A DNA stretch of 64,000 nt from NCBI GenBank assembly GCA_963845175.1, contig CAWJRI010000012.1:13928-77927 (forward strand), written 5' to 3'. Positions 5,384 to 52,684 of this stretch are shown one piece after another. Position 1 is the stretch's first letter; every line of letters starts with the position of its first letter. Under the pieces are notes generated by a model. It had not been told where the DNA came from. It saw only the letters and a list, made by a program, of their open reading frames with translations, and did no database searches. A program made the translations under genes and the position numbers. The DNA comes from an uncultured archaeon (GTDB lineage Archaea; Nanobdellota; Nanobdellia; Woesearchaeales; CAIVOO01).

Positions 5384-5421
5384 TATTGTTCTGTGTTTGT
5401 CAAGAATTTATATACTTTTCT

Positions 5422-5444: not shown

Positions 5445-5448
5445 TACT

Positions 5449-6048: not shown

Positions 6049-6063
6049 TTATTTCACCTCCTT

Positions 6064-18900: not shown

Positions 18901-21242
18901 CGCATACAAATACAACAATTGAAAATTCAACAGCTGTTAACGGCAAAGTATTCAGTATGAATATTTTAGGAAATAATAATGTTGCAAGCAATAATGATGT
19001 GCTTATCAAGGATTTGAATATAAATATAACTACCCATGGAAATAATGTTGACTTAAAAAAACTGTCAATCAATAATCTAACCATTGCGTTAGTTATTGTC
19101 GGAGGCTCGAACAACACCATCGAATCAAATAATGCAAAATATCATAATGCAAAATTATGGATCAGATCAGACGCAACAGATTATACAAAAATACATGACA
19201 CTGTTTTTGACTATAATTTTGTCTCATCCATTGGGCTAATGAATGCCAATAAAACCACAGTAAAAAACAATGTATTGACAATGGAAAATGCCGGCTTCGG
19301 CCTTGATATTATTCATGATGCATTTTATTCGACAAATATCACAAGGCTAATTTTCGGAGGAGTCGGCCTTATTAGCTCAAACAACAACACCATAGTCAAC
19401 AATTCGTTCATAGGCAACTCGCCTACTGCAAGCATCTCATTAACTCCCGCAAACGCAAAAAACAACACAATCAGCATAATTTATACGCTTCTGCTTGCAA
19501 TGCATAACTCCACTAATAATTATTTCGCAAACAACACAATTGTAAACAACACAATAAGTGAATCATTGGCTTCGCTGTTCAGCCCTTCGCTAGGGAACAA
19601 ACTAAGCATCCAGAAGCCAGGTATTTTGATTGACTCAGACAACAACAAAATATTTTCAAACAAAGTTTACAACAGCGGAAACTTTGATGCCTGGATAAAT
19701 GGAACAAACAACTCGTTCAGGCTTAACAGCTTTCTTTCAAATGGCATCGGCGGAAAGAAAAGCTTCTACGGTTCATACTCGCCGATGCACTACAATGGAG
19801 AGTATTTCAACGATACATATGGTTTTGTCGTCATAGGATCCGGCATTCAGGTTGTAACAGTAGACAACACATTAATAACACCAGCAAATGGCACCAACAA
19901 TTATGATCTTATGCTGTTCAACGACACAGTGGGTGCACTTGGAAATGGAACTGGAAAAATGTCAACCGCATTCTGTATAGGATGTTATGCTGGCGGCATA
20001 ATCAATTGCAGCGCTTTAGATGCTGCGCTTAGCTCTCCAGGTGCCTGCCGCTATTACAAACACAATGCGCTTGTAGGCCAGGGCGCTGGACAGGATTATT
20101 TGTTCAATGACATCTTCAACTCCACTTATTATGTGATACATAGCTACACTTCGCCACCTTCGATAAATTTGAAGGACTTCAGCAATAATTACTGCGTCGC
20201 TGGCGAAGGAAACTTCTATGAAGAATCGATACCTATGTCTAGAATCGGCTCGAATGACTGCGGTCTCAGCAATTTGACAAGCCCAACCGCAGGGAACTAC
20301 AACGACGGAACAGTAAAAATAAACTGGACAAGGCAGAGCGCCATGAGCACTGTAACCTATGACATCTTGCTTAACAGAACATGGACAGGAGTTGAAACGC
20401 TCCTTGCAAGAACTGTGGGGCTTAACTACCTCTGGAATACCACTGGCTACGAACCAGGCATTTACAGCATAAGGCTTGTTCCATGGATAGTCGGAAGCAG
20501 GCATAACGCGACAAATGCAAAAAGTGAAGAATTTGACCTAAACGGCACGATTCCTGCGACACCTTTGTTAATTTCGCCGGCAAACGATTCAACTCTGATC
20601 GACAGGACACCGACGATGAACTGGACAACTGTAGCAGGCAGCGGAATCACGTATCAGCTGCTGGTTGATAATGACACATCATTCGCTTCACCCGAAATAA
20701 ACGTCACAATCTCTGACACAAATTACACGCCGCTGACTGACATGAAGTTTGGAACGCACAACTGGAAAGTAAGGGCTTACAGAGGGGTTTTATATAGCAG
20801 TTTCAGCACGCAGAGGAATTTCACAATAATCACAAGCATCAGCTGCTCGCTGCCTGTGGCTGCTATTAATTTTGGAAATATAGATAAGGATGCAATTAAG
20901 AATACACAGAGCGAGAATCCTGCACCAATGATTGTCCGGAACAACGGAAACCTGAAACTCAACATTTCAATCAATTCAACTGACTTGTGGAAGTCACAAC
21001 CGAATCCGTCATCCTACTACCAGTTCAGGATCGACAAGAATGAAAGCAATGCATGGGATTCTGCGCTTAATGATTCATGGCACAATCTAGTCAAGACAAC
21101 TCCGCTGGTGGCAATCAGCGGACTGAAATACCATAGCGAAAGCAATTCAGCGGAAATCGAGCTTCAGATAACAGGACCGCCTGATGAAGGTGCAGGATCA
21201 AAGAAATCACAATTAAATGTGTGGTGCAGCCAAGATGAATAA
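6936..21242 (+). CDS. Giant (4,768 aa) N-terminally anchored surface protein: SHOCT-like cytoplasmic head, one TM, a sequon-rich stalk, ~10 LamG (concanavalin-A-like lectin) modules, Ig/FN3-like domains, a right-handed parallel beta-helix (PbH1) region and a C-terminal beta-sandwich
   Basis: A single uninterrupted ORF. Start taken at ATG 6936 (MNEDKLSELEKRFEE), because the first 18 aa of the track ORF are the HTH gene in another frame. TM is LAIGIAVLVVLIGLFFLV. LamG hallmarks (WTH.A.TY.G....YI[ND]G, GKIDNVRIYNR.LS..[EQ]IKALY) recur 10 times. Beta-helix repeats (N.TIKNC.L.N...GIY...S.NN.I.NN) span about 17540-19760. N-x-S/T sequons are abundant throughout. Confidence 0.9.
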   Translation: MNEDKLSELEKRFEECKLSLTEYDILKEKLIKKYDLAEPAKPPRIEKKKPRKLAIGIAVLVVLIGLFFLVKAPSFTGLFMQNVSNETNASINISVVLNESQINETLNVSIKNIGLENITENLTSNNSIKNISLENKIKKIIPKTALDKLNDKFNGINFEKDKNYLKIKHKKAEIRLKGANESEIKEVQVASEDEIKIKNKKASFGTPVVAINSINITNATIILDKEGPVNRIVYCPDWNFTGESCSAWVETNIPFTDLGDKISFTVTHFTAYAGSFVTNVASEWDAGLFTNTEKLGNVTILSGANTTGTYLSYVYRNGTTANDAVIVDWTKLAWVDDYNGTTHYQEAPVRSGMVGYWKLNNNTLDSSTKHNNMTSYEATPTTECVFGTGNCAYDFGGTSSYMTALNSADFDFGTGDFTVEVWVYPTGDPSSMEEIINKADSTSYAPFRILRVPTGGGLNYLMSNTAGSWVTYGGVWYGDSAYAPLNKWTHIVLTRNSGTAHFYVNGVQVSSMSANYQVYNDASEVAIGRLLHYGTPYWFQGKIDNVIIYKDKGLTQDEVKEEYARGAKELNITLAYRTTNLTQEVYNTSGLLGWWKLDENATDFSGNGNNGNIVGAAKIGGYFNNSYMFDLAYLKYIDVGTGLNAQTVMTLEAWVNPHSGYSHIGGIISKYQQGASPAGSYYMDIDDALHPNYAFYGLSPSCAGSVTSYTFPTDKWTYYAITYDGSKVITYINGNDIDERACSGTITQSSATVWIGNLNQPAYYYNYYGKIDSARVYNRSLSAEEIKYNYWHANFTGRNFGAYKAESPATINQNAKYFQYKAKLVSNASGYTPFLEKTEANFSFTSGNTAPTQGTPKLNSTHRTNKSNENLTVYNTSTYDADGDHVTNIINWYRNGNSITALNMPFNSNNSAGAGKTKDYSGNGNNGTINGATWSATSGFDGKGAYSFDGTNDYITIPHSSSINIISGQATYSMWLKRGRSGATEVLFDKNSVTPEPVYIRFSNNDRIYIQIFANDGSYHYFFASSTSTITDTDWHLLDVVFDYDTWTNSKIYIDGVAETLYSPTQFGTQIALTNTGILTIGSPNSGADYNFNGKIDNVRIYNRALSAAQIKALYNNRTDRIVSQELNAGEIWKASITPNDGYADGLTKFSNNVTILSSANTAPTQGTPILNSTHGTNRSNENLTVYNTSTYDADGDHVTNIINWYRNGNSITALNMPFNSNNSAGAGKTKDYSGNGNNGTINGATWSATSGFDGKGAYSFDGSNDITVSDSSSLKLGRGSFTISLWLKTGYHGYQLILGKYNPTYPYEDYEISMLDASTIRGCAIDCGTSACGFGSTRFCLPVTFSIADNQWHYITYTRSGSLETFYIDGVSLGTLTQGPLNTDSTGVLHIGSTSFSGKIDNIIIYNRSLTAQEIKALYNNRTDRIVSQELNAGDIWKAAVTPNDGYTDGLTKFSNNITILSAANTAPTQGTPKLNSTHGTNRSNENLTVYNVSTYDAEGDPVTNIINWYKNGNSIMALNMPFNSNNSAGAGKTKDYSGHGNNGTVNGATWISNGGFDGKGAYSFDGSDYVSCGNRAKTVLNDRLTLEAWIKPTVGATSPIVGKDSQSPGWESYAMSLSTAGEVVMQLTNGATYSYVKSSGVVSNGVWSHVAVTWQYTGAGGMTDVSIYINGVKQTNFLVAQTGEPSTLSAATGDLRIGMLANQAYYFTGKIDNVRIYNRSLSAEQIKALYQNRTDRIVSQELNAGDIWKAAVTPNDGYSDGLTKFSNNVTIRAPAVANTASTQGTPILNSTHGTNRSNENLTVYNVSTYDAEGDPVTNIINWYRNGTSIAVLNMPFNSNNSAGAGKTKDYSGLGNNGTVNGAKWIPNGGFDGKGTYSFDGSGTYIDLGTGLNVQTEMTFEAWVMPHYPFPQIGAILSKFNQYGSPPGSYYFTIDGNLHPNYYIYGPACSGQVNSYTFPTEQWTHYAVTYNGSKAITYINGQKVDEISCSGAIQHSASSVWIGNLNQPAYYYKYFGKIDSVRLYNTSLSAAQIKALYQNRTDRIVSQELNAGDIWKAAVTPNDGYSDGLTKFSNNVTIRAPAVANTAPTQGTPILNSTHGTNRSNENLTVYNVSTYDAEGDPVTNIINWYRNGTSIAVLNMPFNSNNSAGAGKTKDYSGLGNNGTVNGATWNATAGFDGKGAYSFNGNTNNYISWTYTKPQNSFTMVAWVKATTTHEIDSLSDPLGGVSGEKYVFWPNHEANSSAGAGLSVGTNGITVYEHGDWYLPAVAEYIGNLSTHWHHIAIVYANKQPKIYLDGALVSTGGISTRTIVYAPTQMGSGSYGGFPGLIEDVRIYNSSLSAVEIKALYNNRTDRIVSQELNVGDIWKASITPNDGYSDGLTKFSNNITIKANIPPTQGTPILNSSKRLNRSNENLTVYNVSTYDADSDPVTNIINWYRNGNSIMVLNMPFNSNNSAGAGKTKDYSGHGNNGTVSGATWISDGGFDGKGAYRFNDSKSDFINLGTGSSLTIADKITLEAWIYLPDLTGYHPIISKQGYSVLRYNYAFGTSGANIYLWLDAEGGGTAGEIITTDNPITTTGWHHIVASYDGSYEAIYLDGVDVKHQVVSITLANSGTHACYIGREDYNTGISGLFNGKIDSARIYHRALTAQQIKALYNNRTDKIVSQELSAGDVWKASITPNDGYSDGLTKFSNNVTILSSAAANTPPTQGTPILNSTHRTNKSNENLTVYNVSTYDADSDPVTNIINWYRNGNSIMVLNMPFNSNNSAGAGKTKDYSGHGNNGTVDGATWSATAGFDGKGAYMFSSSYIERAYDPDFTPGTKSWTVAAWIKVPLTEGPPSFIADWYRCGANPSCGSPDSALYSLSIINNNKVNWHVRDDNSNDVSLTSSSAVADNNWHYIVGTFDPTNDLTKLYIDGAEVATNNTPLTSLSDGGVSIPLEIGRRFVTGWGSPSGYLYGKIDDVRIYSRALTAAQIKALYNNRTDRIDSQELKVGETWNASVTPNDGYADGLTEFSNSVTIKSSTPPNITKVQLHDKNKKPITNKTLVKAGENITINVTVAQTEGTVSSVWIKVWKTVANAFTTIFEGVLNLISGNLWQITITTNGSWTHGTNYTIYANDTTNIITSRNEKVFVNNLPTQGVPALSSLLRRNGTNENLTVYNTSTYDRDKDPVTNIINWYRNGTSIAMLNMPFNSNNSAGAGKTKDYSGHGNNGTVDGATWSATAGFDGKGAYSFTGTNGEYIDAGNVPGINGASALSVEAWVYVNAFSGDNGIVAKRVAGVGEGFQLISYDSGGNHFHWYPETTGTNNVASSVKNKVINTWYHVVGTYDGSYARIYVNGVLEDTQVVTGTIISSAASIWIGNYYSTDHPFDGKIDSIRIYNRALSPAQIKALYNNRTDLIVAEETKSKETWKACITPNDGYGDGPTNCSNNLTINTAPTVVLAGPANNSVWNIPPTFSWTYSDSDNDVQQEYHIIMDNDSDFSSPEINSTVVSSNNYTQIMPNNPGSYYWKVQVYDGKEWSNFSGTRKFTTTCLSPYNDMYINSNTKLCSGTFHINDSYPDGVLILNASDIILDCNNATLIGNGANYGIYVNQKNNITIKNCILKNYNYGIYSWYSNNSKIINNKFSNSTIYLSSSHYFNIISNYISASGKLIDLEGSRHTNIFNNKISKNLSIDLFTGSGSGGQIYAYHSPYTYALNNTFKYSGGIRFSWSDNSSAVNNTVTDFSTAFAGLIGVDGSNGILFEGNNITNTMGLLGALYADGSKNVIIKRNKVENNLLMMLTITNCNNITVRDNNLMSNKDAWYIKNISAIYEEITNQTFPTSLGIDGSSSFLMTLLQQLFSHVESGAFNISGGNITGVNLDAMSLLKILGPVYSTNVNNMTLVSNNLTFDSFKIMANLRANKVDVKRDDVSFGAAVAYIEGSDNIIENNSFIFNNSGVSIHSYGNVTDIENNRLNIILGSFALQGNSNRVYHNKMAIEKSGIDLNSHTNTTIENSTAVNGKVFSMNILGNNNVASNNDVLIKDLNINITTHGNNVDLKKLSINNLTIALVIVGGSNNTIESNNAKYHNAKLWIRSDATDYTKIHDTVFDYNFVSSIGLMNANKTTVKNNVLTMENAGFGLDIIHDAFYSTNITRLIFGGVGLISSNNNTIVNNSFIGNSPTASISLTPANAKNNTISIIYTLLLAMHNSTNNYFANNTIVNNTISESLASLFSPSLGNKLSIQKPGILIDSDNNKIFSNKVYNSGNFDAWINGTNNSFRLNSFLSNGIGGKKSFYGSYSPMHYNGEYFNDTYGFVVIGSGIQVVTVDNTLITPANGTNNYDLMLFNDTVGALGNGTGKMSTAFCIGCYAGGIINCSALDAALSSPGACRYYKHNALVGQGAGQDYLFNDIFNSTYYVIHSYTSPPSINLKDFSNNYCVAGEGNFYEESIPMSRIGSNDCGLSNLTSPTAGNYNDGTVKINWTRQSAMSTVTYDILLNRTWTGVETLLARTVGLNYLWNTTGYEPGIYSIRLVPWIVGSRHNATNAKSEEFDLNGTIPATPLLISPANDSTLIDRTPTMNWTTVAGSGITYQLLVDNDTSFASPEINVTISDTNYTPLTDMKFGTHNWKVRAYRGVLYSSFSTQRNFTIITSISCSLPVAAINFGNIDKDAIKNTQSENPAPMIVRNNGNLKLNISINSTDLWKSQPNPSSYYQFRIDKNESNAWDSALNDSWHNLVKTTPLVAISGLKYHSESNSAEIELQITGPPDEGAGSKKSQLNVWCSQDE
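9476..17240 (+). repeat. Eight tandem ~0.9-1.3 kb coding modules (small beta-sandwich split by a LamG domain) with 100%-identical nucleotide blocks in the linkers and divergent LamG cores
   Basis: Module starts (N[TI][AP]PTQGTP) are near 9476, 10413, 11328, 12270, 13190, 14113, 15050 and 16340. Identical blocks: 9533-9786 = 10472-10725; 12114-12528 = 13032-13446 (1 mismatch); 14184-14359 = 15120-15295; 15213-15348 = 16503-16638. Confidence 0.9.
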
Positions 21243-34878: not shown

Positions 34879-36369
34879 ATGGAAGCAGAAAAGCTTAAAG
34901 AGCTTGTAAGCTACATTGTTGAAAAAGGGTTTATATGGGGTCCTGAGCCGGAAATATATGGCGGAACAGCAGGATTCTACACCTATGCGCCGCTTGGAAA
35001 ACTGCTTAAAAACAATGTGGAAGGCGCAATAAGAAGCGTTCTGCAGGCAAATGATTTCTGGGAAGTCGAGTGCCCAACTGTAATGAAGAAAGAGGTTTGG
35101 GAGGCGTCCGGACATCTTGGCGGATTCTCAGACCCGATGATTCAGTGCTCGAAATGCGATTCTATTTTCAGGGTCGACACGCTGCTTGAGGAAAATGGAA
35201 TAAAGCCGGACAAAGACCCGCTGAAGCAGGTCATTGAAAGCAAGATTAAATGTCCAGGCTGCAAAGGCAATTTCAAAAATGAAATCAAAAAGCACAGCCT
35301 GATGATGCGCACAATAGTGGGTGTTGACACAGAGGCGTACAACAGGCCTGAAACAGCAACAACAACCTATCTTCCGTTCCAGAGATTTGCTGATTTCTTC
35401 AGGAAGAAAGTTCCATTCGGCGTTTTCCAGATTGGAAAAGCTTACAGGAACGAGATAAGCCCGAGGCAGCATGTGCTGAGATGCCGAGAGTTTACGCAGG
35501 CAGAGGCCCAGCTGTTCATTGGAAAAGAGCAGAAGGATGATTTTGAAAAATATGAGAAAGTGAAAAACGAGAAGCTGCCTCTGTGGCCGCACCAGCTGCA
35601 GGAAAAAGGAAAGCCAAAGATGATAGGTCTGGATGAAGCGCTGAAAAACAAATATTTGAAAAACAAGGCATATGCCTGGTGTTTGTATATTGCCTACAAG
35701 CTTTTTAGGGAGATAGGCATTCCAGAGGAAAAGATAAGACTTAGGCAGCACCATCCCGATGAGAAAGCATTCTATGCCGATGACGCTTGGGACATAGAGA
35801 TAAACCTTAACACATTTGGTTGGTTTGAATGCTGCGGAATCCATGACCGGACAGATTATGACCTGAAGCAGCATGCAAAATTCTCAGGAAAGAAGCTTGA
35901 GATATTCAGCGAGGATTTGAAAAAAAGCATTGTTCCTCATGTGCTTGAAATAGCATTCGGCACAGACAGGCCTGTTTTTGCGCTGCTTGACTTGTTTTAT
36001 GAGAAAAAGGAAAAGGAGGAAGGAAAATCCCTGCTGAAGCTTCCTGCAAATCTTGCGCCAGTCAAAGTCGCTGTATTTCCGCTTGTGAACAAGGATGAAT
36101 TGCTGGCATTGTCAGGCAAAGTTTATGATGAGCTGAGCAAGGAATTTATTGCCATATTTGACAAGTCAGGTGCGATTGGAAGAAGATATCTTAGGCAGGA
36201 TGAAATTGGAACTCCCTTCTGCCTCACTGTTGACTTCGATTCTATCAAGGGAAATGACATAACAATAAGGGAGAGGGACACAGCAAAGCAGAAAAGGGTA
36301 AAAATCAAGGATTTGAGTGAAATTTTGAGAAAATTAATAAATAAAGAAGTAAAATTTGATGTAATATGA
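34879..36369 (+). CDS. glyS: Glycine--tRNA ligase (archaeal/eukaryotic alpha2 type)
   Basis: GFIWGPEPEIYGGTAGFYTYAPLG, FRNEISPR, class II motif 3 region GTDRP. First ATG is 34879. Confidence 0.9.
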   Translation: MEAEKLKELVSYIVEKGFIWGPEPEIYGGTAGFYTYAPLGKLLKNNVEGAIRSVLQANDFWEVECPTVMKKEVWEASGHLGGFSDPMIQCSKCDSIFRVDTLLEENGIKPDKDPLKQVIESKIKCPGCKGNFKNEIKKHSLMMRTIVGVDTEAYNRPETATTTYLPFQRFADFFRKKVPFGVFQIGKAYRNEISPRQHVLRCREFTQAEAQLFIGKEQKDDFEKYEKVKNEKLPLWPHQLQEKGKPKMIGLDEALKNKYLKNKAYAWCLYIAYKLFREIGIPEEKIRLRQHHPDEKAFYADDAWDIEINLNTFGWFECCGIHDRTDYDLKQHAKFSGKKLEIFSEDLKKSIVPHVLEIAFGTDRPVFALLDLFYEKKEKEEGKSLLKLPANLAPVKVAVFPLVNKDELLALSGKVYDELSKEFIAIFDKSGAIGRRYLRQDEIGTPFCLTVDFDSIKGNDITIRERDTAKQKRVKIKDLSEILRKLINKEVKFDVI

Positions 36370-37196
36370 GAAGTAAAAAGGCAATAATAGGGAGTCTTGC
36401 AGCTGTTTTTATAGCGCTTATTATTTTGAACTTGTATGGAAATAATGCCTCAATTACCGGCTATGTTGCCAGGTCATCAGGCGATGTTCTTATTGATGTG
36501 CAGATAGTTGCAGCCAGCGACGCATTTAAGATGCTGGGAGAAGGGGCAAAGATATGTGCTGTGGTTGAAATGGACAAAAACACAACATATTATTTTGAAA
36601 TAAAAAAAACAGCCGGTTCATTTGTTCCTGAATCTAAATACTGCGCAGACCCGTCAAATGATGCTCTCACAATAAAATTCAATTCCTATGATGATTTTAC
36701 AAACTTCAAATCAGATCCTGCGGCTTTCCTGGGAAGCAAACAAAATACAGGTTATTATTTTTTCCCGTCAAAATATATACAGAGCGGTGGAGCAATCAAC
36801 TGTGATGCGGAATTCCAGCAGAGGTATTGTGCAGCTGCACAGTTTTTCTGGACAAAAGAGCAGTTAACAAGTCTGCAGCTTGACTGCTGTGCTAATTACG
36901 CGCTTCCGGCAGATGTTGAAAATCAAATAAAAACGCTGAAAACAGGGGCTGTCGAAAAGCCGGCAACTTTGATAAACACCACAAACCTAATAATAACAGT
37001 TGTGTTGCTGGCTGTGCTTGTTGCTTTGGTCCTTATTCTTTTAACAAAGAAAAAGCCAAAGATAAGCCCTGAAATAAAAGAGTATGTGGATAACAGCAGG
37101 GCGCAGGGCTTCACAAACGATCAGATAAGGGAGGCGCTTATGCAGAGCGGCTGGAAAGAGAAGGATATTAATAATATGCTGGGCAAAACTTTATAA
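36366..37196 (+). CDS. 276-aa bitopic membrane protein: Cys-containing extracytoplasmic domain and a short helical cytoplasmic tail
   Basis: N-terminal TM, second TM IITVVLLAVLVALVLILL, tail SRAQGFTNDQIREALMQSGWKEKDINNML. The ATG overlaps the glyS stop. Confidence 0.6.
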   Translation: MRSKKAIIGSLAAVFIALIILNLYGNNASITGYVARSSGDVLIDVQIVAASDAFKMLGEGAKICAVVEMDKNTTYYFEIKKTAGSFVPESKYCADPSNDALTIKFNSYDDFTNFKSDPAAFLGSKQNTGYYFFPSKYIQSGGAINCDAEFQQRYCAAAQFFWTKEQLTSLQLDCCANYALPADVENQIKTLKTGAVEKPATLINTTNLIITVVLLAVLVALVLILLTKKKPKISPEIKEYVDNSRAQGFTNDQIREALMQSGWKEKDINNMLGKTL

Positions 37197-37579: not shown

Positions 37580-37685
37580 GGGGCGGTAGCTCAGCCTGGG
37601 ACTTGTCAATGATTTAGCCAGACAAGCAGGAAAGAGCACACGGCTGAAGACCGTGGTGTCGGGGGTTCAAATCCCCCTCGCCCCA
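37580..37685 (+). tRNA. tRNA-Phe: tRNA-Phe (anticodon GAA) with a ~30-32 nt intron in the D-loop
   Basis: Acceptor GGGGCGG/TCGCCCC with discriminator A. D-stem GCTC...GAGC. Anticodon arm CACGG-CTGAAGA-CCGTG. T-arm GGGGG-TTCAAAT-CCCCC. The D-loop region is 41 nt rather than about 9-11 nt and contains the hairpin CTTGTC-N13-GACAAG. Confidence 0.75.
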
Positions 37686-37728
37686 TTTATTTTTCTGCAA
37701 AGCAATAATAATTCATAGTAAATTGTTC

Positions 37729-39975
37729 TTATCCGCCAAGACTGGATTTAAGAATGCTCCCTGCAACAAGGTTGAAGATAATCATAATAGCCAAGGCAAG
37801 AAACACATACATCACTGTTGACCTTGTCAAATTCTGGCCAATCATGTATTCTTCATTCAATTTATCAACCCCGTTTTCTACGCCATTGGCCATAATTGTC
37901 AAGATATAAACTATTTGCACCACATAAATTCCAACGATAATCTGAAAATAAAACGTGGGAATGCCGTCGCCAAAAATATCCATCAAGCCGGCACCTGTCC
38001 CACCGGCAGAAGCTGCTCCGCCTGACTGTATTTTCGTGAGCTGCTCGCCAAGCCTTCCGATTATGGTTGTAATCATTGAGGTTATTCCAATCACAATACC
38101 AGAGATTGCCGGCGTAAGAAAATTTATCTGCGACTTCATGTCTGAGATTACATCAGCCATCAGGTCTTTCAATCTTTCGTCAACCTTATGTATTTCCTTT
38201 ATATAGGTTGAAACATTGATTATTGCCTGGGCTGCTATCATAGGCCCGCGTTTCGAGCTTTCAATAAGAACCTTCATTGAGCTGTCGATGAGATGAGAAG
38301 GATAGTTCAGGATGGCTCCCATCTTCGGATCAAATATTGCCTGCTCTACGCTAAAGCCCAATCTTCTTATATTCATCATCACTGCATTGAAAAAATCGCC
38401 TGAAGTTGTTCCCTCTGTCACGCTTGCAACCTTTTCAAAGGCAATCTCCGCAGGCAGTCCGTCTGCCAGCCTGTTTCCAAGCTGGAAAAGCGCAGAGGCG
38501 AAATCCTGCTCGAGCTTTTTGATATTTTCCCTTATCTGCATCACTGACTTTGACCTTATTTTGTAATAAATTCCTATACTCAGCCCCAGTGCCAAAGGCA
38601 ATGCCAAGCTCGCTATCGCAGCACCAAGACCATAGGGCCCGATTATCAGACCGGGTGTCTTCATCGATTCCCTATATTCAAGAAACTTGAACTGAATGTC
38701 CTTCATTTGCTCAGGTGTTGTGTATTGGTTGATAATCATGACATAGGGTGATTTAAGGGAAAATCCTATGTCCCATTTCGCGTCAGGAATAACTTTGTGA
38801 AGAATAAGTGGAGAAACTGAACAAACAAATAAGACTGCTCCAATAATTATGCTTATCACAAGCGGGGTGAAATTTATTTCAGCGCCAAGAAATTTGAGCC
38901 TGACCTTTTTGTATTTTTTCAGTTCTGGATTCGCCTCTGCAATATCCGCTTCACCATATCCTGTCGGCCTTTTTGAAAGAATGTTCGTTGTTAGGTAATA
39001 AACGCCTACAGGCAGTATTATGTTATAAAGCATTGCCAGCTGATACCAGGTAACGCCTTCCATGAAGCTGACAACAAGCGGCAGGATGACAAGGCCGAGT
39101 ATCGGCAGTATTATTCCAAGCATATGAAGCATTGTTATGGGTGACTTGAGATTTTGGGCGTAATGAAGCATTTTCTCGTATGTTTCCTCAAGAATTACTG
39201 TGAGCGACTTGTCCAGAACCGCAACCCTTCTTTCCTCGGAGCTTTCATACAATGATGATTCTAAAAGATGGAACGACTCTATGAATTCCATGTTCCATTT
39301 TTTCCATGTTTCCAAATAGGATTCAAGCGATTCCTTGACATTCTCATATTTTTCTGTCTCAACATCCCACATAACCTTCTTCAAATCAAGCGAAAGCGGC
39401 GGGGAAAGATGTTCGGATGCAAACTCTATTGCTCTTTCAATATTTGAGGTGTGCCTCATGTAGGTGACAACATAAAAAATACAGAGAACCATTTGGTTGG
39501 ATGCCTTCATTCTCCATTTGTTTGCCATAAAATCTGGAAATTTTGACAATGGAAAAATCAAGACAGCACCTATTATCATAGAAACAAGCATGAAAAACGT
39601 TGATGGGCTTCCGCCTGATACTGAAGGTATTGCGAAGCTGAGAAAAACTGTGACAAGAATGAACGCAACAGGCAGGAAATATGATGCACTCACAACCCCG
39701 GCAGGCGTTATGTTCAAATGGCATATTTTTATGTCCTCTTCAAGCTCCTTCCACCTTTTTTCATCGGGCTTAAGCTTGAGTATCTTTTCAGAAATATTGC
39801 AGAGCTTTTCATAGAATGACATGTGCTTCGGCATGTAAGTTTCCTTGAATTCCTTGTACTCAACAGAAGTTATAGGCCTTGCATTAACAGCCTGGCCGGG
39901 GGAAACTGTGCCTGCCTCTAGCTTTCCCTTATATTTAGAAATTAGTTCCTTTATCTCTTCTTCGGGTATTGGCAT
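37729..39975 (-). CDS. 748-aa polytopic membrane protein, candidate FlaJ/TadC/PilC-like platform protein (divergent)
   Basis: Starts 1 nt after the stop of the secretion ATPase gene. About 9 or more TM segments are separated by two cytoplasmic helical regions. The assignment rests mainly on gene context. Confidence 0.55.
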   Translation of the reverse strand: MPIPEEEIKELISKYKGKLEAGTVSPGQAVNARPITSVEYKEFKETYMPKHMSFYEKLCNISEKILKLKPDEKRWKELEEDIKICHLNITPAGVVSASYFLPVAFILVTVFLSFAIPSVSGGSPSTFFMLVSMIIGAVLIFPLSKFPDFMANKWRMKASNQMVLCIFYVVTYMRHTSNIERAIEFASEHLSPPLSLDLKKVMWDVETEKYENVKESLESYLETWKKWNMEFIESFHLLESSLYESSEERRVAVLDKSLTVILEETYEKMLHYAQNLKSPITMLHMLGIILPILGLVILPLVVSFMEGVTWYQLAMLYNIILPVGVYYLTTNILSKRPTGYGEADIAEANPELKKYKKVRLKFLGAEINFTPLVISIIIGAVLFVCSVSPLILHKVIPDAKWDIGFSLKSPYVMIINQYTTPEQMKDIQFKFLEYRESMKTPGLIIGPYGLGAAIASLALPLALGLSIGIYYKIRSKSVMQIRENIKKLEQDFASALFQLGNRLADGLPAEIAFEKVASVTEGTTSGDFFNAVMMNIRRLGFSVEQAIFDPKMGAILNYPSHLIDSSMKVLIESSKRGPMIAAQAIINVSTYIKEIHKVDERLKDLMADVISDMKSQINFLTPAISGIVIGITSMITTIIGRLGEQLTKIQSGGAASAGGTGAGLMDIFGDGIPTFYFQIIVGIYVVQIVYILTIMANGVENGVDKLNEEYMIGQNLTRSTVMYVFLALAIMIIFNLVAGSILKSSLGG

Positions 39976-39976
39976 T

Positions 39977-42241
39977 TTATTTCATCTGATACTTTTTTGC
40001 GGCTGCTTTCAGCCATTCATTAAATTCAAAGAAAATTCTTTTTGGGTCCAATGCGCCAAATTCTTCCCTCACTGTCTCTGAAATCTTGTGGAACTGGTCG
40101 TTACATAATACTACAAAATCAGCTTCCAGAAGCTCTGGCCTCTTTGCTGCATCTGAAATATCAACGATTGCCTTCTTGATATCCGCCCTCAACTGAACGT
40201 TTTCCCAGACAGCATCCCAGTTGCCTGCCCATTCCTTAACATTTCCTGCTATCGCTTTCAGTATGTCTGAATCGCCGTTTATCAAGTCATTGGAGCATTC
40301 AAGCTGGTCATGTTTTGATTCATATTTCATCAAATCGACAAATCCATGCTCGAGCAGCGGATCCTCCTCCCATTGCTTCCTTACCTCTGTAATGGAAGTG
40401 ACGCGCCTCCACCTGTGCATTCCGTCGGGGGATTTTATCGGGTTTGCAACAACAATTATGTCTGTTGCCTTGAATGATGTTTTTGGCACTTGCAAATCAT
40501 TTACAACCCTGTCATAAACTCCATAGGGGGAATCGCCATGGATTGTTCCTGCAACAACATTTGCAAGTGCGCCAACCCTCATTGCCTCGTAAAGCGCCCT
40601 TGCCTCTGTGCTCCTTACTTCACCAACAATCAGGGCAGAATCTCCCAGGCGCAGCGTCGTTCTTATGCCTTCATCTGCAGGTACTTCTGTTGTTCCTTTT
40701 GACATTGCGCTTGCAACCTTCATCTGCTGTATGTTGTATCCAAGATTCATTAAAGATCTTACAGGCAGTTCAAGCGTATCCTCGATTGTTATCATCCTGT
40801 AAGTTCTCATAACCTCAACCATTAAAGAGGCGAGAAGGGATGTTTTTCCTGCGCTTCTTGTCCCTGCAACCAGCAATGTCCTGTTTCCATCAATTATGAA
40901 GCTAAGAAGCCCTGCCGCAAGCGGGTTTAACATTCCCTGTTTTATGAAAAGCGGAAGTGTCCATGGCTTGTCCCTGTGCCTTCTGAATGCAAACGCAAGC
41001 CCTGTTGGATCAAGCGGCGGAGCAATAACACCTACCCTTGCCCTCGATCCAGGTATTTCTATTTCTGTATCTAAAATAGGATTTGCCTCGTCAAGCGGTC
41101 TGCCTGAAATCATCCTCAGCTTCGAGGCCCAGGACTCTGCCTCTGACCTTGTTATTATTGCATTTGTCCTGCAGTTGTCGAAATCCGCATGAACTATGAA
41201 CATCGGCGACTGGCCGGGCGGGCTGTTGATTGTTATGTCCTGTATTTTTTCATCCTGAAGAAGCACTTCAACAAGCCCGAAGCCGACAGTGTACCTGATT
41301 AATATTTCTGACAGCTCCACAATCTCGTCTTCTGTCAGAGTCATATTTCTGTATTTTGCAAGCTCCTCTATCAAATCCTTTCCGACGTTGAAGAAAACCT
41401 GCCTCATCCTATCAGGCTGCGTGAATTCCTCTGCCGTCGGCTTGTGCTCAGCCATTATTTTTCTTGCGGCATCCAAAACTTCATATTTTTCCTCTGAAAG
41501 CTTGAATTCAGGCGGCAGCATGTGATAAAGTGTATGGACTGTGTCAGGAAGTGTGAAGGCAGTTATTTCAGTGCCCTTTACCGTGTAGCTTGCAATCTCC
41601 TCTCCGCCAATCGGGTATGTTGCCATCAGCTTCGTAAACATGAAGTCCGGCTTTATCGCTGGCCTGAAAATTTTCTTGTAAACAGAGCGGTCAAGTTCGT
41701 AGCCGGCAAGATAGGGCTTGGCGATTGTAACCAACCTTGTTTTTTCCAAAAGAGAAAGTAAATATGTAATCAGTGAAAGGTATCTTTGCTGTCCCTGGAT
41801 TTCGGCATCTACGGTGTACTGCTCAAGTTTTATCCTTTCAGTTCTGAGAAGCCTTTTAAGTTCAACATAGCAACCCAGCGGATCTGAAGTGAGCAGCTGG
41901 AAAATTATTCTTTGGATATCATTGTATCTCTGCTCCTGGTCTCTTTTAAATGTCCCGCCAAAGCTCAGCGCCTCCAGGTTGAAAATATCCTTTTGCTTCA
42001 AAAGCCTATTGTATAGAAATGCAATCTCATTGAGAAGCTGGACCTGGTCAAACTCATATTCATAATCTCTTTTTTGGTAGAATATAACCTTTGTAACATT
42101 GCCGACTTCTGCAAGCTTGGCAATTGTCATTGACATGCAGTTTGGGTCGTCTTCAAGGGATGGCACCCTTAAATACTTTTCATAGTCTATTTTTAGTGTG
42201 ACTTCCCCGCCTTCCCTTGTTACATCATAATCGCCAGGCAC
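39977..42241 (-). CDS. Type II/IV secretion-family ATPase (FlaI/PilB/VirB11-like) with long N- and C-terminal extensions (754 aa)
   Basis: Walker A VAGTRSAGKTSLL, ITIEDTLEL (Asp box), ALIVGEVRSTEA (Walker B), AGTIHGDSP (His box). GTG start. Confidence 0.85.
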   Translation of the reverse strand: MPGDYDVTREGGEVTLKIDYEKYLRVPSLEDDPNCMSMTIAKLAEVGNVTKVIFYQKRDYEYEFDQVQLLNEIAFLYNRLLKQKDIFNLEALSFGGTFKRDQEQRYNDIQRIIFQLLTSDPLGCYVELKRLLRTERIKLEQYTVDAEIQGQQRYLSLITYLLSLLEKTRLVTIAKPYLAGYELDRSVYKKIFRPAIKPDFMFTKLMATYPIGGEEIASYTVKGTEITAFTLPDTVHTLYHMLPPEFKLSEEKYEVLDAARKIMAEHKPTAEEFTQPDRMRQVFFNVGKDLIEELAKYRNMTLTEDEIVELSEILIRYTVGFGLVEVLLQDEKIQDITINSPPGQSPMFIVHADFDNCRTNAIITRSEAESWASKLRMISGRPLDEANPILDTEIEIPGSRARVGVIAPPLDPTGLAFAFRRHRDKPWTLPLFIKQGMLNPLAAGLLSFIIDGNRTLLVAGTRSAGKTSLLASLMVEVMRTYRMITIEDTLELPVRSLMNLGYNIQQMKVASAMSKGTTEVPADEGIRTTLRLGDSALIVGEVRSTEARALYEAMRVGALANVVAGTIHGDSPYGVYDRVVNDLQVPKTSFKATDIIVVANPIKSPDGMHRWRRVTSITEVRKQWEEDPLLEHGFVDLMKYESKHDQLECSNDLINGDSDILKAIAGNVKEWAGNWDAVWENVQLRADIKKAIVDISDAAKRPELLEADFVVLCNDQFHKISETVREEFGALDPKRIFFEFNEWLKAAAKKYQMK

Positions 42242-42351
42242 AATACACCTCTTTTATTACTTTACTATAATAACACAAAATTTTATTTATTTAGTTATTT
42301 AAAAAGATTATTTAGGAATATATAAATATTACGTGTTATTTAATTGGAAAA

Positions 42352-42792
42352 ATGGCAAAGGAAGAAACGCCTGCTGGATCCACGGCGCCAGCAGTGCCAA
42401 AGACAAAGGAGCCGGCAATTGGTTTTGCTGAAGTGGCGAAGGAAGTCAACAACATAGAAAGGGCAATAAAAGTTCTAGAGGACAGGGTTTATAATCTTAG
42501 GGAAAAGGAAAAGATTGACAGCGAAAATGTGCTTGACACTAACAAAAAGGTTTTTGGCGAGATAAGGGTAATAAATTCTGACCTGCTTGATGTGAAAAGG
42601 GACGTTGAAGACATAAAAACAAAATTAAGGCTGATAATCAGCGATTTGAGAGTCTCGGCAAAGAAAGAAGAGATAGACCAGCTAAAAAAATATTTGGATC
42701 TGTGGGAGCCGCTTAATTTTATCACGAGAGGAGAGGTTGAAAAAATAGTTGAATCTATTATTGAAGACAAATTAAGAGAGAAAGGTTTATAA
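42352..42792 (+). CDS. 146-aa coiled-coil protein, divergent from the ATPase gene
   Basis: ORF track. Heptad-rich sequence with a low-complexity N-terminus. Confidence 0.55.
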   Translation: MAKEETPAGSTAPAVPKTKEPAIGFAEVAKEVNNIERAIKVLEDRVYNLREKEKIDSENVLDTNKKVFGEIRVINSDLLDVKRDVEDIKTKLRLIISDLRVSAKKEEIDQLKKYLDLWEPLNFITRGEVEKIVESIIEDKLREKGL

Positions 42793-42800
42793 AGATTAAA

Positions 42801-43388
42801 ATGCCAGAAGGTATTCCAACAGATGCTGTGCTTAAGCTTAGGGCACAGAGCCTGAGCAACAATCAGATAATTCAGACACTGCAGAGGCAAGGTTATAGCG
42901 TTCAGCAGATATCTGATGCAATGTCTCAGGCAGAAATGAAATACACCGTTGAGGGAGCTCCAATTTCAGGTGAAAAAATGCCAGAAGAACAACCATACTA
43001 TCCAGAAAATTATTCTGCAGGAGGGGAATCAGCGCAGCAGCCGACTTTCTCTGCAAAAAGCCTGCAGCCGATTGTTGAGAAAATAGTTGAGGAAAAGTGG
43101 GCGGAGCTTCTGAGGGACTTGGAGAAGCTTGCCAACTGGAAGGAAAAAACAGATGAAAGGCTTACAAAAATAGAATCGCAGCTGCTTGTTCTGAAAGACT
43201 CGTTTGACAGGCTTCATGAAGGTGTTCTTGGGCAGATTTCCGAATATGATAAAAGCATGAAGGATGTTGGAATCAGCGTGAAGGCAATGGAGGACGTGTT
43301 CAAAAAAGTTCTTCCGGGATTTGTCGAGAATGTTTCTGAATTGTCAAGAATAACACAGGAAATGAAGAAAACCACTGCAAAGAAATGA
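42801..43388 (+). CDS. 195-aa protein: small N-terminal helical domain, an acidic/Pro linker and a C-terminal coiled coil
   Basis: ORF track. The N-terminus LRAQSLSNNQIIQTLQRQGYSVQQISDAM resembles the tail of the protein at 36366..37196. Confidence 0.55.
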   Translation: MPEGIPTDAVLKLRAQSLSNNQIIQTLQRQGYSVQQISDAMSQAEMKYTVEGAPISGEKMPEEQPYYPENYSAGGESAQQPTFSAKSLQPIVEKIVEEKWAELLRDLEKLANWKEKTDERLTKIESQLLVLKDSFDRLHEGVLGQISEYDKSMKDVGISVKAMEDVFKKVLPGFVENVSELSRITQEMKKTTAKK

Positions 43389-43390
43389 TG

Positions 43391-43954
43391 TCAGGGTTTT
43401 GATTCTTCTGTTAAAAGCCAGATTGCAAACACAGCAATAAGCATAACGAAAAAGAAACTGAGGACTTTTGGACTAAAGAATGCCGTGCCTATATTATGAG
43501 AAACAGATGCTGTTGCTGTTCCGTTAACTGATGTCACATTTCCTCCACCAGTGTAAGCCAAAAGGCTGCTTCCGTAGACAGATGCAAATGACCCCATAAA
43601 TATTATTATTGCAATTATCAAAATCCAGTAGAATGCTGATCCTTCACTTCCGACAACTGCCTTTGAAAGCCAGTCATCTTGCACGCCAAACATTTTGTAA
43701 ATGACAAAGAGCAGGAATAGAAACATCATAACCACGACAAAGGCAGGCGCCATTGTGTCTATCAGCTTTATAACATTCGGCGAAAGCAGGGTGATAACTG
43801 CTAGGCAAAGCGCCAGTATGGCCCTGATTCCCGCCCTTCCTTCACCAAAAAACTTAAACGCCTCCATAGCAGCGTAGGCAACCACAAAGACAAAAAGAAA
43901 AGAGAAAACAGTAGAGATATTCTGCAAAAGTCCTATGTCAAGAAATGTTGCCAT
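43391..43954 (-). CDS. 187-aa five-TM membrane protein, paralog 3 of a tandem triplet
   Basis: ORF track. Same length and hydropathy layout as the two upstream genes, but more diverged. Confidence 0.6.
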   Translation of the reverse strand: MATFLDIGLLQNISTVFSFLFVFVVAYAAMEAFKFFGEGRAGIRAILALCLAVITLLSPNVIKLIDTMAPAFVVVMMFLFLLFVIYKMFGVQDDWLSKAVVGSEGSAFYWILIIAIIIFMGSFASVYGSSLLAYTGGGNVTSVNGTATASVSHNIGTAFFSPKVLSFFFVMLIAVFAIWLLTEESKP

Positions 43955-43969
43955 TTTATTAGGTATGTT

Positions 43970-44542
43970 TTATGGTTTCTTGGCCAACTTCGTCAATTCT
44001 TCGAAAAGGCCTCCTTTTTTTTCGCCGGGCTCCTTTGTTATGTAAGCCATCAGCACGAAAAATACAATTACGATGATTATTAATGCTTGTGTGCTCGGAT
44101 CCTCAAGGAAATAGAGCCAGCTTGGAAGGTTTTGAAAATAACCTGCTGCATTTACAAATACAAATATGACAAATAGTATGGCAAGTCCTATCATCCAGCC
44201 TGTTGCTTTGCTTTCTGCAAAGTTTGTTCCGCCCCATAATCCAAGCAAAAGCAGCAACATCACAACTGCAATTATGCCGACTGAAATGTTCGGCAGTGCA
44301 CTGTTAATTATATTGACAACATCTGCCTGTTGCGAGTACATTCCTGTGACATGCGGGATTACTACTGCAAGCCCCATAACCAATGCGACAATGATGTGAA
44401 CGTTTTTCTTTTCCTTGCCAAACAGCTCTGTTTTCTCCATTACTGCAAAAACAAGCGTGAATACCAGCAAAAAAGGCAGCAGAACATCTGCCACGCCAGC
44501 CTGCTGAAGGTAAAGAATTGCATCCTGAAAATTAATAGCCAT
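43970..44542 (-). CDS. 190-aa five-TM membrane protein, paralog 2 of a tandem triplet
   Basis: The N-terminus AGVADVLLPFLLVFTLVFAVMEKTELFG matches LGIYDVILPFLLVFSIVFAILEKTKVLG of paralog 1. Confidence 0.65.
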   Translation of the reverse strand: MAINFQDAILYLQQAGVADVLLPFLLVFTLVFAVMEKTELFGKEKKNVHIIVALVMGLAVVIPHVTGMYSQQADVVNIINSALPNISVGIIAVVMLLLLLGLWGGTNFAESKATGWMIGLAILFVIFVFVNAAGYFQNLPSWLYFLEDPSTQALIIIVIVFFVLMAYITKEPGEKKGGLFEELTKLAKKP

Positions 44543-44552
44543 GTTGTATCAC

Positions 44553-45116
44553 CTATCCTTTCTTTTCCTCCTTTTTCGGACTTTTTGTCACGAACCACAT
44601 GAATCCCACAACAACTATTGCCAGGATAATTGTGCCGACTGTGTTTCCTGACCAGTTTGATGAAATGTAACTAAATATATAATCAAGCCACGTCTGACCT
44701 GAGTCTGTCTTTATTGCGTGCAGGAATATTGCGACTATCGCAATAAACATGAAAAAAGAGAAGAATATCATCCATGGGTCATCCCATTTGAATTTTGTTT
44801 CCTCTGTGCCGAGAAATACGCCGACAAGCATTAGGAATGATACAGCCAGCAAAATCAGCAGCACAATGTTCGCCATTGTCTCGTTCACAATTGCAACAAG
44901 CTTTGTTGAGCCGACAACCAAAAATGCAATTACAAACGCAACCATTGAGTTGAGGTTCTTTTTTGTCAGCTTCTTTTCAGCGTCCTCGTATCCCAGCACT
45001 TTTGTCTTTTCAAGTATTGCAAAAACAATAGAGAAAACAAGCAGGAACGGCAAAATCACATCATAAATGCCAAGCTGGTTAAAAAACTCTATAACACCTC
45101 TAAACGTAGTTGCCAT
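44553..45116 (-). CDS. 187-aa five-TM membrane protein, paralog 1 of a tandem triplet
   Basis: ORF track. Intergenic gaps within the triplet are 10 and 15 nt. Confidence 0.65.
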   Translation of the reverse strand: MATTFRGVIEFFNQLGIYDVILPFLLVFSIVFAILEKTKVLGYEDAEKKLTKKNLNSMVAFVIAFLVVGSTKLVAIVNETMANIVLLILLAVSFLMLVGVFLGTEETKFKWDDPWMIFFSFFMFIAIVAIFLHAIKTDSGQTWLDYIFSYISSNWSGNTVGTIILAIVVVGFMWFVTKSPKKEEKKG

Positions 45117-50755: not shown

Positions 50756-52684
50756 ATGCCGACCATAGAAAGTCTGATTAAGAAAGTAAAAGAGTATAGC
50801 CCTTCTGTAAATGACGCGCTGATAAGGAAGGCATATGAAGTTGCTGAAAAAGCTCACAGAAATGAGAGAAGGGCATCTGGCGAGCCGTTCATAGTCCACC
50901 CACTTTCTGTTGCAGAGTCGCTTGCCGAGTTCAAGATGGATGAAGCTTCAATCTGCGCAGCCCTGCTTCACGATGTTGTTGAGGACACGCCCGAATCAAT
51001 TGACAGGATCAAAAGCGAATTTGGCGATGAGATTGCAATGCTTGTTGACGGCGTCACAAAAATAACAACATTAAAGTCAAAGAGCAGGGAGGAGTACCAG
51101 ACAGAATCATTGAGAAAAATGCTTTTCGCAACTGCAAAGGATATCCGGGTGATAATAATAAAACTTCTAGACAAGCTTCACAACATGAAAACTCTCGAGT
51201 TCCTGCCAAAGGAAAAACAGCTGAGGATTTCAAAGGAAGTTATGGATGTTTACGCACCGATTGCATACAGACTTGGGATTGAAAAGATAAAAAATCAATT
51301 GGAAGATCTGGCATTCAAGTATCTCGAGCCTGAAAAATTCAATGAAATTGAGGAAAAGATAAAGAAAAACAAAAGAGCAAGAGAGGAGCAGATAGAAAAG
51401 CTAAGGGAGTTTCTTGAAGGCGCACTTAAGGAGCACAACATACCCTGCAAGGTTGTCGGGAGGCTGAAGAACATTTACTCAATCTACAAAAAGATGGTAA
51501 GGAAAGAGAGAACATTCGAGGAAATATTTGATGTTGTTGCATTAAGGGTTGTGACTGACACACCAGACAACTGCTACAAAGTAATCGGAATCATTCACAG
51601 CATGTGGAAGCCGATTCCAAGAAGGTTCAAGGACTTCATTGCCATACCTAAGGTTAACATGTACCAGTCATTACATGATGTTGTCATAGGCGAAGGCGGA
51701 ACAATAATTGAGATACAGGTTAGGACAGAGGAGATGGACAAGTTAGCAGAGGAAGGGATTGCTGCTCACTGGAAATATAAGGGGCTTGAAACAGACAAGA
51801 AGTTTGACAAGAAGCTGAGCTGGCTGAAGGAAATAATGGACTGGCAGCAGGACGCTTCTGCAAAAGAATTTGTTGAGTCATTGGAAATAGATTTTTTCAA
51901 GGATGAAATTTATGTTTTCACGCCAAAAGGCGATGTTATAGAGCTGCCAAAGGGCTCCACGCCGATTGATTTTGCTTACTCAATTCATTCAGGCATCGGC
52001 GACCACTGCATCGGCGCAAAGGTCAACGGCACATTCGTGAGCCTGAGGCATGAATTGAGGACAGGTGATGTTGTTGAGATAATGACTTCAAAAACGCAGA
52101 AGCCAAGCGTCGGCTGGATGAAGATTGTAAAGACAGCAAAGGCGCTGAGCAAAATCAAAAAATACCTTTATGAGGAAAAGAAGATTCCTGTAAGAGGTAC
52201 CAAGAAGATTGAGAGAAAGGAGCTGTCTGTTTCAGGAGGACAGGGAATACTGCTGATTGAAGGTGTCAAAAATCCAAAAATAAAGCTTGCAAAATGCTGC
52301 AATCCCCTGCCTGGACAGGATATTATCGGCTACGCTGATAAAATCAGAGGGGTTGTAATACACAAGGCAGACTGCGGTAATTCTAAGTTAAAAGACACGC
52401 AGAAGAGAAAGGTTAAGGTACACTGGAGAAGCGAATTCAGTGCATTTATCGAGCTGAAAGTGGAGGCGCTTGACAGGGTTGGCCTGCTTGCTGACATTCT
52501 TAACACAATCGCGGCAACAGGCACTAATCTGGAGACTGCAAACGCGAAAATGCTTGGCAAGGATATGTCAGAATGTACGTTCAAGATAAAAGTTGAAGAT
52601 CTGGACCACATAAGGGATTTAATAGAAAGAATAAAGAAATTAAAGGACATAAAAAAGATTTATATTGGAAAGCTTGGTGTTTAG
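50756..52684 (+). CDS. rel: Long RelA/SpoT homolog (bifunctional (p)ppGpp synthetase/hydrolase architecture: HD, synthetase, TGS, ACT)
   Basis: HD domain: H..ERRASGEPFIVHPLSVA...LLHDVVEDT. Synthetase domain: GRLKNIYSIYKKM...VVALRVV...YQSLHDVV...IEIQVRT. TGS domain: IYVFTPKGDVIELPKGSTPIDFAYSIHS. ACT domain: DRVGLLADILNTIA. Confidence 0.9.
   Translation: MPTIESLIKKVKEYSPSVNDALIRKAYEVAEKAHRNERRASGEPFIVHPLSVAESLAEFKMDEASICAALLHDVVEDTPESIDRIKSEFGDEIAMLVDGVTKITTLKSKSREEYQTESLRKMLFATAKDIRVIIIKLLDKLHNMKTLEFLPKEKQLRISKEVMDVYAPIAYRLGIEKIKNQLEDLAFKYLEPEKFNEIEEKIKKNKRAREEQIEKLREFLEGALKEHNIPCKVVGRLKNIYSIYKKMVRKERTFEEIFDVVALRVVTDTPDNCYKVIGIIHSMWKPIPRRFKDFIAIPKVNMYQSLHDVVIGEGGTIIEIQVRTEEMDKLAEEGIAAHWKYKGLETDKKFDKKLSWLKEIMDWQQDASAKEFVESLEIDFFKDEIYVFTPKGDVIELPKGSTPIDFAYSIHSGIGDHCIGAKVNGTFVSLRHELRTGDVVEIMTSKTQKPSVGWMKIVKTAKALSKIKKYLYEEKKIPVRGTKKIERKELSVSGGQGILLIEGVKNPKIKLAKCCNPLPGQDIIGYADKIRGVVIHKADCGNSKLKDTQKRKVKVHWRSEFSAFIELKVEALDRVGLLADILNTIAATGTNLETANAKMLGKDMSECTFKIKVEDLDHIRDLIERIKKLKDIKKIYIGKLGV

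Follow-up and report, generated by a model that had tools for sequence, protein, structure and literature searches.

A candidate motor and scaffold module for a type IV filament-like machine in an uncultured Woesearchaeales archaeon

Within 64,000 nucleotides of the genome of an uncultured archaeon of the Woesearchaeales (assembly GCA_963845175.1, contig CAWJRI010000012.1, positions 13,928 to 77,927, this whole stretch being referred to as the window) there are seven neighbouring genes that centre on a secretion-type ATPase and a large polytopic membrane protein, the platform. The most likely reading, to which we give a probability of roughly 0.6, is that they encode the motor and scaffold of a pilus-like machine of the type IV filament class that is specific to the cluster-2 DPANN archaea. 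The ATPase and platform are accompanied by two genes for coiled-coil proteins (cc146 and cc195) and three for proteins with five transmembrane (TM) segments (tmA, tmB and tmC), and these accessory genes travel with the pair over large evolutionary distances. The locus is a well-conserved, uncharacterised example of a class of DPANN type IV pilus-like loci that has already been reported and is not a new system, with the conserved 5-TM triplet, an orphan N-terminal module on the ATPase, a housekeeping level of conservation and the presence of inteins as the new details. The features of the locus, numbered from the first letter of the window and with the basis of each in brackets, are as follows.

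37729..39975, minus strand: divergent T2SSF/TadC/FlaJ platform, 748 aa, polytopic (open reading frame (ORF) listing plus family and fold evidence)
39977..42241, minus strand: secretion/assembly ATPase of the GspE/TadA/FlaI superfamily, 754 aa, GTG start (ORF listing, Pfam T2SSE)
42242..42351, no strand: AT-rich divergent intergenic region, 110 bp, separating the ATPase operon from the two coiled-coil genes
42352..42792, plus strand: cc146, predicted cytoplasmic coiled-coil protein, 146 aa (ORF listing, heptad contrast)
42801..43388, plus strand: cc195, predicted cytoplasmic protein with a C-terminal coiled coil, 195 aa (ORF listing, heptad periodicity)
43391..43954, minus strand: tmA, 5-TM membrane protein, 187 aa, the most divergent of the three paralogs (ORF listing, hydrophobic segments)
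43970..44542, minus strand: tmB, 5-TM membrane protein, 190 aa (ORF listing; N-terminal motif ADVLLPFLLVFTLVFAVMEKT)
44553..45116, minus strand: tmC, 5-TM membrane protein, 187 aa, the best conserved paralog (ORF listing, hydrophobic segments)

The locus had been picked out in an earlier model-made reading of the sequence alone (the sequence-only reading), and the coordinates and strands given there for all seven ORFs agree with the ORF listing. The stop codon of the ATPase (39977-39979) and the start codon of the platform (39973-39975) do lie 1 nt apart, the platform is apparently translationally coupled to the ATPase, and a GAGGTG ribosome-binding site is found just 5' of the GTG start of the ATPase itself. 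The spacer at 42242-42351 is 110 bp long, as had been said, with 15.5% GC compared to 40.8% across the window, and TATA-like runs can be read on both of its strands, where two archaeal promoters are presumed to lie. The next gene after tmC is that of RtcB, on the plus strand. All close homologs of the window proteins are labelled Woesearchaeota, Nanoarchaeota or Nanoarchaeia.

The ATPase is matched by Pfam T2SSE (PF00437) with 49 bits (E=4.6e-13), which is above the curated gathering score of 24.9, and the four boxes recognised earlier are all intact, with Walker A (GTRSAGKT) at residue 460, the Asp box (IEDT) at 486, Walker B (VGEVR) at 539 and the His box (GTIHG) at 565. The best NCBIfam match is FlaI (NF058587; 4.8e-36, 124.6 bits against a cut-off of 550), with TadA at 2.6e-35 (122 bits against a cut-off of 373), and judged by these scores the protein is a member of the superfamily and an equivalog of neither FlaI nor TadA. 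A search of the PDB sequences ranks afGspE (2OAP, 1.6e-28) above CpaF (5e-23) and FlaI (4e-16), and by this comparison the protein is closer to archaeal GspE and CpaF, among the relatives of solved structure, than to the FlaI of the archaellum. The homology to archaeal GspE, CpaF and FlaI spans residues ~288 to ~647, with residue 288 aligned to residue 100 of afGspE and residue 36 of CpaF, thus an N2-type domain is shared with the solved relatives.

It follows from the start of this homology that the N-terminal extension, put at ~430 aa in the sequence-only reading, was overestimated, the family-specific part being ~290 aa or ~190 aa more than in afGspE; the C-terminal extension of ~110 aa likewise shrinks to a tail just ~30-40 aa longer than that of afGspE or FlaI. 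The N-terminal 295 aa are conserved throughout the family, including in two distant loci (L085 and L087, described below), and are confidently predicted to fold (predicted local distance difference test, pLDDT, 81.6) as an alpha/beta domain, a helical bundle and a beta-rich domain, for which Foldseek gave no credible match in the PDB. Homologs of the ATPase number more than 6000, the best 120 full-length ones being 65-100% identical to it. Inteins of ~500 aa, with LAGLIDADG and splicing domains, were also seen in some ATPase homologs (P0030, P0050 and P0105; loci L017, L044 and L046), at two insertion sites, one at ~residue 490 in the Asp box and the other at ~residue 545 in Walker B.

The 748-aa protein is a divergent T2SSF/TadC/FlaJ platform. 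On its own it is matched weakly by Pfam T2SSF (PF00482), with 12.1 bits against a cut-off of 25.2 (E=0.2), and a profile of its family finds nothing significant among the PDB sequences, so that the link to T2SSF is apparent only from comparison of folds and from Pfam scans of other family members. When 31 diverse full-length members of the family (25-50% identity) were scanned, 16 matched PF00482 at E<=0.1, the best at 2e-6, and one member from Aenigmarchaeota is named by NCBI as a 'type II secretion system F family protein'. The AlphaFold model (pLDDT 70) was found by Foldseek to resemble the cytoplasmic domains of OutF (5nbg), EpsF (2vmb/3c1q) and PilC (2whn), with a probability of 0.98-1.0, a TM-score of 0.70-0.75 and a root-mean-square deviation of ~2.9 Å. 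Besides 8-9 TM segments the protein has two cytoplasmic domains, both helical, and at residues ~358-448 a small insert that is rich in beta structure, and its halves (130-345 and 465-748) can be aligned weakly but in register by hhalign (P=0.007, 141 columns). Similarity to T2SSF is thus found both in the Pfam matches of the family and in the fold, and the T2SSE/T2SSF-type pair that had been proposed is borne out by Pfam, Foldseek, the PDB search and the NCBI naming.

Both members of the pair are under strong constraint. A profile search with the platform against 1.8 billion representatives returned 1231 clusters, a pattern scan places it in at least 559 species-level genomes, and its family extends to Aenigmarchaeota. 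Among the related loci that were fetched the two genes are adjacent in most, with a few in which the platform has no adjoining ATPase, and the median identities to the window proteins across these loci are as follows.

ATPase: 65%
Platform: 59%
OB-fold neighbour: 58%
RFC: 52.5%
RtcB: 51%
tRNA synthetase: 41%

The ATPase and platform are more conserved than the adjoining RFC or tRNA synthetase genes, and constraint this strong is unusual for the components of a pilus. Many of the records that carry a Woesearchaeota-type locus (L010-L081) are titled 'uncultured Methanosarcinales archaeon', which is an apparent taxonomic mislabelling of metagenome-assembled genomes.

Whether the coiled-coil and 5-TM genes belong to the pair can be judged from their distribution. 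Hidden Markov models (HMMs) of the window proteins were compared with all ORFs of the loci, a locus being informative if it included at least 4.5 kb upstream of the ATPase (n=47). In 31 of the 47, the genes for both coiled-coil proteins and for the 5-TM proteins, two to four in number and mostly three, are found upstream of the ATPase in the order of the window; the cc146 HMM matches 46 ORFs upstream of the ATPase, and cc195 adjoins cc146 in the 31 loci with the full accessory set and in L087. As the OB-fold/Ssb, tRNA synthetase and RFC genes are likewise syntenic with the pair in many Woesearchaeota loci, this synteny alone is no proof of linkage.

It is the distant relatives that decide the matter. 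L087 is a distant unclassified relative, its platform 28% identical to that of the window, in which all the genes are on one strand, with three tm homologs, a homolog of cc146 (3e-24), a homolog of cc195 (3.4e-36) and the ATPase in this order, followed by a CARDB protein, a SpoIIM-like protein, the platform and then six to nine genes with MKG/MKKG leaders and a hydrophobic stretch, a pilin-like array that closes with a VWA protein. The coiled-coil pair is on the other strand relative to the arrangement in the window, and the housekeeping neighbours of the window are all absent. In L088 (Aenigmatarchaeota) the gene right beside the platform is a tm homolog (7e-11), the 5-TM family alone of the accessory sets reappearing there, and the platform is followed by five genes that begin with MKG and then xALE, a Flg_new_2 protein and a VWA protein. 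A third locus, L085, has two platform paralogs that flank two pilin-like genes and the ATPase. The flanking genes of L087 and L088 are wholly different from those of the window, and because the accessory genes are kept there under a different gene context they are concluded to be functionally linked to the pair, while the pilin-like genes tie the family to substrates with class III signals. Taken with the 31 loci, the retention of both sets in L087 and of the 5-TM family in L088 shows that the adjacency first noticed in the window is not random.

The two proteins called coiled-coil in the sequence-only reading show strong heptad periodicity and no TM segments, and neither has a signal peptide or a class III signal. 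cc195 begins with a small helical domain, which a low-complexity linker joins to a C-terminal coiled coil, with heptads at residues ~100-175. Against Pfam and NCBIfam both proteins give weak generic coiled-coil matches only, with no Arch_fla_DE domain to support the comparison with FlaC/D/E that had been made, and the similarity of the two to each other in hhalign (P=2e-4) may reflect mere coiled-coil composition.

The tmA, tmB and tmC proteins each have five hydrophobic segments and are indeed paralogs, tmC being 33% identical to tmB and 15% to tmA, with HMMs that cross-match, and the N-terminal motif reported as common to tmB and tmC is present in both. When aligned across genomes they fall into three orthologous subfamilies, with tmA in one of its own, which suggests that the triplet provides three distinct subunits; the median identity of tmC is 49%. 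A profile search with this alignment found more than 1300 homologs, all of them unnamed proteins of Woesearchaeota/Nanoarchaeia (DPANN), and Pfam and NCBIfam gave sub-threshold noise only. The C-termini are lysine-rich and the positive-inside rule suggests a topology with the N-terminus out and the C-terminus in. As no residue is invariant across the three subfamilies the proteins are unlikely to be enzymes. Two other candidate roles were rejected, that of divergent prepilin peptidases as there is neither a GxGD-type motif nor an invariant residue, and that of non-canonical pilins as the R-G of the tmC leader is not conserved, the stretch that follows it is not hydrophobic and the proteins have five TM segments.

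The sequence-only reading had remarked that pilins and a prepilin peptidase are missing from the neighbourhood, and this was upheld, with no A24 prepilin peptidase, FlaF/G/H or pilin family near the pair among those window ORFs that were scanned or covered by gene calls. Pfam annotation of the 9 kb beyond the end of the window likewise gave no pilus genes and no A24 peptidase, and the scanned window ORFs and these 9 kb are annotated with housekeeping genes, SecDF, a cluster of surface proteins and a giant protein. The related claim that the window holds no class III signal stands in so far as none has the support of a family, although there are three ambiguous N-termini that it had passed over.

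36366-37196, plus strand: ambiguous class III-like or signal-anchor N-terminus, MRSKKA followed by IIGSLAAVFIALII
535-1221, minus strand: ambiguous class III-like or signal-anchor N-terminus, MKRG followed by MKYLLCAILVYVLIL
5449-6048: ambiguous class III-like or signal-anchor N-terminus

Pfam offers no support for any of the three. The first belongs to a 276-aa protein with an outer domain rich in Cys, a TM segment at the C-terminus and a short cytoplasmic tail that resembles the N-terminal domain of cc195 (a match of just 30 residues, pairwise E=2e-5); it is found at the same position in only a few loci.

The operons of L085, L087 and L088 that contain a platform homolog also contain 2-9 genes with class III-like signals (MKG then xALE, or MKKG then NVWIW). 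These pilin-like genes occur in consecutive runs and have MKG/MKKG leaders, a hydrophobic stretch of ~20 aa and often a Glu near +5. The proposal of a non-canonical surface machine therefore survives in part: the evidence supports a surface machine to which the accessory genes are linked, but its lack of pilins is, given the pilin-like operons of these relatives, probably a matter of gene order within the lineage. The most economical reading is of an ordinary pilin-assembling machine with pilins that are encoded elsewhere in the genome. The pilin-like arrays of L087 (12206-21829) and L088 (12124-22115) are long, on the same strand, downstream of a platform paralog and each ended by a VWA-domain protein, and they include very large members (571-1020 aa), none of which is of a Pfam pilin family.

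Loci of this general kind have been reported before. Loci with CpaF, TadC and coiled-coil proteins are conserved across cluster-2 DPANN archaea, in Nanohaloarchaeota, Woesearchaeota, Pacearchaeota, Nanoarchaeota, Aenigmarchaeota and Undinarchaeota, several of their proteins, the coiled-coil proteins included, were detected by proteomics in Ca. Nanohaloarchaeum antarcticus, and no filament genes are drawn in one of the two published coiled-coil loci (Hamm et al. 2024, Nat Commun 15:6449, PMC11291902). The window resembles them in that one locus of a cluster-2 archaeon holds an ATPase like CpaF and a platform like TadC together with coiled-coil proteins, which in the published loci are specific to DPANN archaea and number one or two. 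The 5-TM triplet is a feature of the window, the word 'transmembrane' having no occurrences in the main text of that paper (PMC11291902), and may be a component that was not described before.

With the archaeal type IV pili and Tad-like systems (Makarova et al. 2016, PMC4858521) the locus shares the core of the ATPase, an N2-like and a RecA-like domain with the four boxes, and a T2SSF platform, with two putative repeats, immediately downstream, and its relatives share the arrays of pilin-like genes with class III signals. It differs from them by the ~290-aa N-terminal module of the ATPase, by a larger platform with a beta-rich insert, by its two coiled-coil and three 5-TM proteins, for which there is no match among the arCOG and Pfam families of type IV pili, and, in Woesearchaeota, by pilins outside the locus and unusually high sequence conservation. 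That the pilins should be hard to find is not without precedent, as there are nanoarchaeal ATPases for which pilins are not identifiable (PMC4858521) and the type IV pilus islands of DPANN archaea are said to hold unrecognisable, 'dark matter' pilins (Makarova et al. 2019, PMC6393860).

If the seven genes do make up the motor and scaffold of a pilus-like machine, a hexamer of the ATPase would dock beneath the platform and, driven by ATP, draw pilins from the membrane and assemble them as a filament on the cell surface. These pilins would be encoded elsewhere in the genome and matured by a peptidase, and the cell could use the filament to attach to a host or for exchange with it. cc146 and cc195 might form a cytoplasmic coiled-coil scaffold or adaptor, possibly by way of the 290 aa at the N-terminus of the ATPase that are specific to its family, and tmA, tmB and tmC might form a hetero-oligomeric membrane collar around the platform.

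A number of observations weigh against this picture. Neither the 64-kb window nor the 9 kb that follow it yielded a family-supported pilin or an A24 peptidase, and the pilin-like genes of the relatives match no Pfam family and are called from their N-terminal pattern alone. Neither the coiled-coil nor the 5-TM proteins fall into a known family, the roles of scaffold and collar proposed for them are by analogy only, and cc146 and cc195 are no more than putative orthologs of the published coiled-coil proteins NAR1_03220 and NAR1_01690. The accessory genes are not beside the pair in 16 of the 47 informative loci, where unrelated genes are found instead. Conservation above that of housekeeping neighbours is odd for adhesion pili, and the machine may have another role.

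One such role is that of a pseudopilus for the uptake of DNA or nutrients, a short retractile filament of the competence type that would import DNA or other material from the host. Its gene content would be the same as that of a pilus machine, strong conservation suits an essential supply function, and many biosynthetic pathways are missing from DPANN cells (PMC11291902). Yet nothing like ComEA/ComEC and no DNA-binding component was seen in the locus, and there is a single ATPase, with no dedicated retraction ATPase in the window. The data do not separate uptake from adhesion, and we regard uptake as an unlikely function.

It is also improbable, although it would account for the absence of a pilin and a peptidase near the pair in this lineage, that the machine is independent of pilins altogether and instead exports or extends the coiled-coil proteins as attachment fibres, or links the cell to its host by building a cytoplasmic bridge or a membrane channel. 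The housekeeping-like conservation, the inteins in catalytic motifs and the unique N-terminal module of the ATPase, with no structural match, are in keeping with this, and the coiled-coil proteins of DPANN archaea have been predicted to be similar to the viral attachment protein sigma-1 (Hamm et al., PMC11291902). Against it, neither a signal peptide nor a class III signal nor a TM segment is present in cc146 or cc195, and the platform homologs of L085, L087 and L088 are embedded in arrays of pilin-like genes. To our knowledge every T2SSE/T2SSF pair that has been studied works on pilin-like substrates, which also counts against a machine of this kind. In its strongest form the pair of the Woesearchaeales, the N-terminal module, the two coiled-coil proteins and a hetero-trimeric 5-TM set would together be an essential membrane machine that needs no pilins, which we consider rather doubtful. 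Were it so, the machine might build a cell-to-cell bridge or export attachment fibres needed by obligate symbionts, and this would account for the inteins and for conservation above that of the adjoining replication and translation genes.

That the coiled-coil and 5-TM genes are mere neighbours held beside the ATPase and platform by inherited gene order is very unlikely. The synteny of the OB-fold/Ssb, tRNA synthetase and RFC genes in many Woesearchaeota loci and the 16 loci that lack the accessory genes beside the pair would fit with it, but in L087 the homologs share an operon with the ATPase in another strand layout and without the housekeeping neighbours, in L088 a tm homolog abuts the platform, and the link between coiled-coil genes and CpaF/TadC across DPANN phyla was found independently (Hamm et al., PMC11291902). 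Finally, a divergent archaellum motor, of FlaI and FlaJ with scaffold proteins like FlaX or FlaC/D/E, shares with the locus an ATPase, a polytopic platform and cytoplasmic coiled-coil proteins beside them, and FlaI is the best NCBIfam match, but this idea is already largely refuted, as the FlaI score is far below its cut-off, afGspE and CpaF match the ATPase better, and the window has no FlaH, FlaF, FlaG, archaellin or Arch_fla_DE match.

Other features of the window were noted in passing. A tRNA-Phe(GAA) at 37581-37687 on the plus strand has an insertion of ~28-31 nt in the D-loop, a non-canonical position for an intron; it was missed by ARAGORN and by Rfam at its gathering threshold, and ARAGORN calls a tRNA-Phe when the insert is removed. 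On the minus strand at 535-6127 there is a cluster of secreted or membrane-anchored proteins of no known family, which adjoins a giant ORF of 4786 aa at 6882-21242 on the plus strand, and together these are probably a cell-surface locus; the cluster includes two paralogs of 228 aa (535-1221 and 3049-3735) that have an internal repeat and MKRG/MKRD leaders. At 50756-52684, on the plus strand, is a gene for a 642-aa long RelA/SpoT homolog with HD, RelA_SpoT, TGS and ACT domains, long homologs of this type being uncommon in archaea.

DPANN archaea live attached to other cells, and the means by which they attach and feed are largely unknown. The ATPase and platform, with the genes that accompany them, are among the most conserved non-housekeeping gene sets of Woesearchaeota/Nanoarchaeia, and the presence of the module in at least 559 species genomes, together with the reach of the platform family to Aenigmarchaeota, marks it out as a strong candidate to be the core of the apparatus by which these cells contact their hosts. 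The list of components, and the link to pilin arrays in the relatives, are concrete targets for the structure prediction of complexes, and for proteomics and cryo-electron tomography in the few DPANN archaea that have been cultivated.

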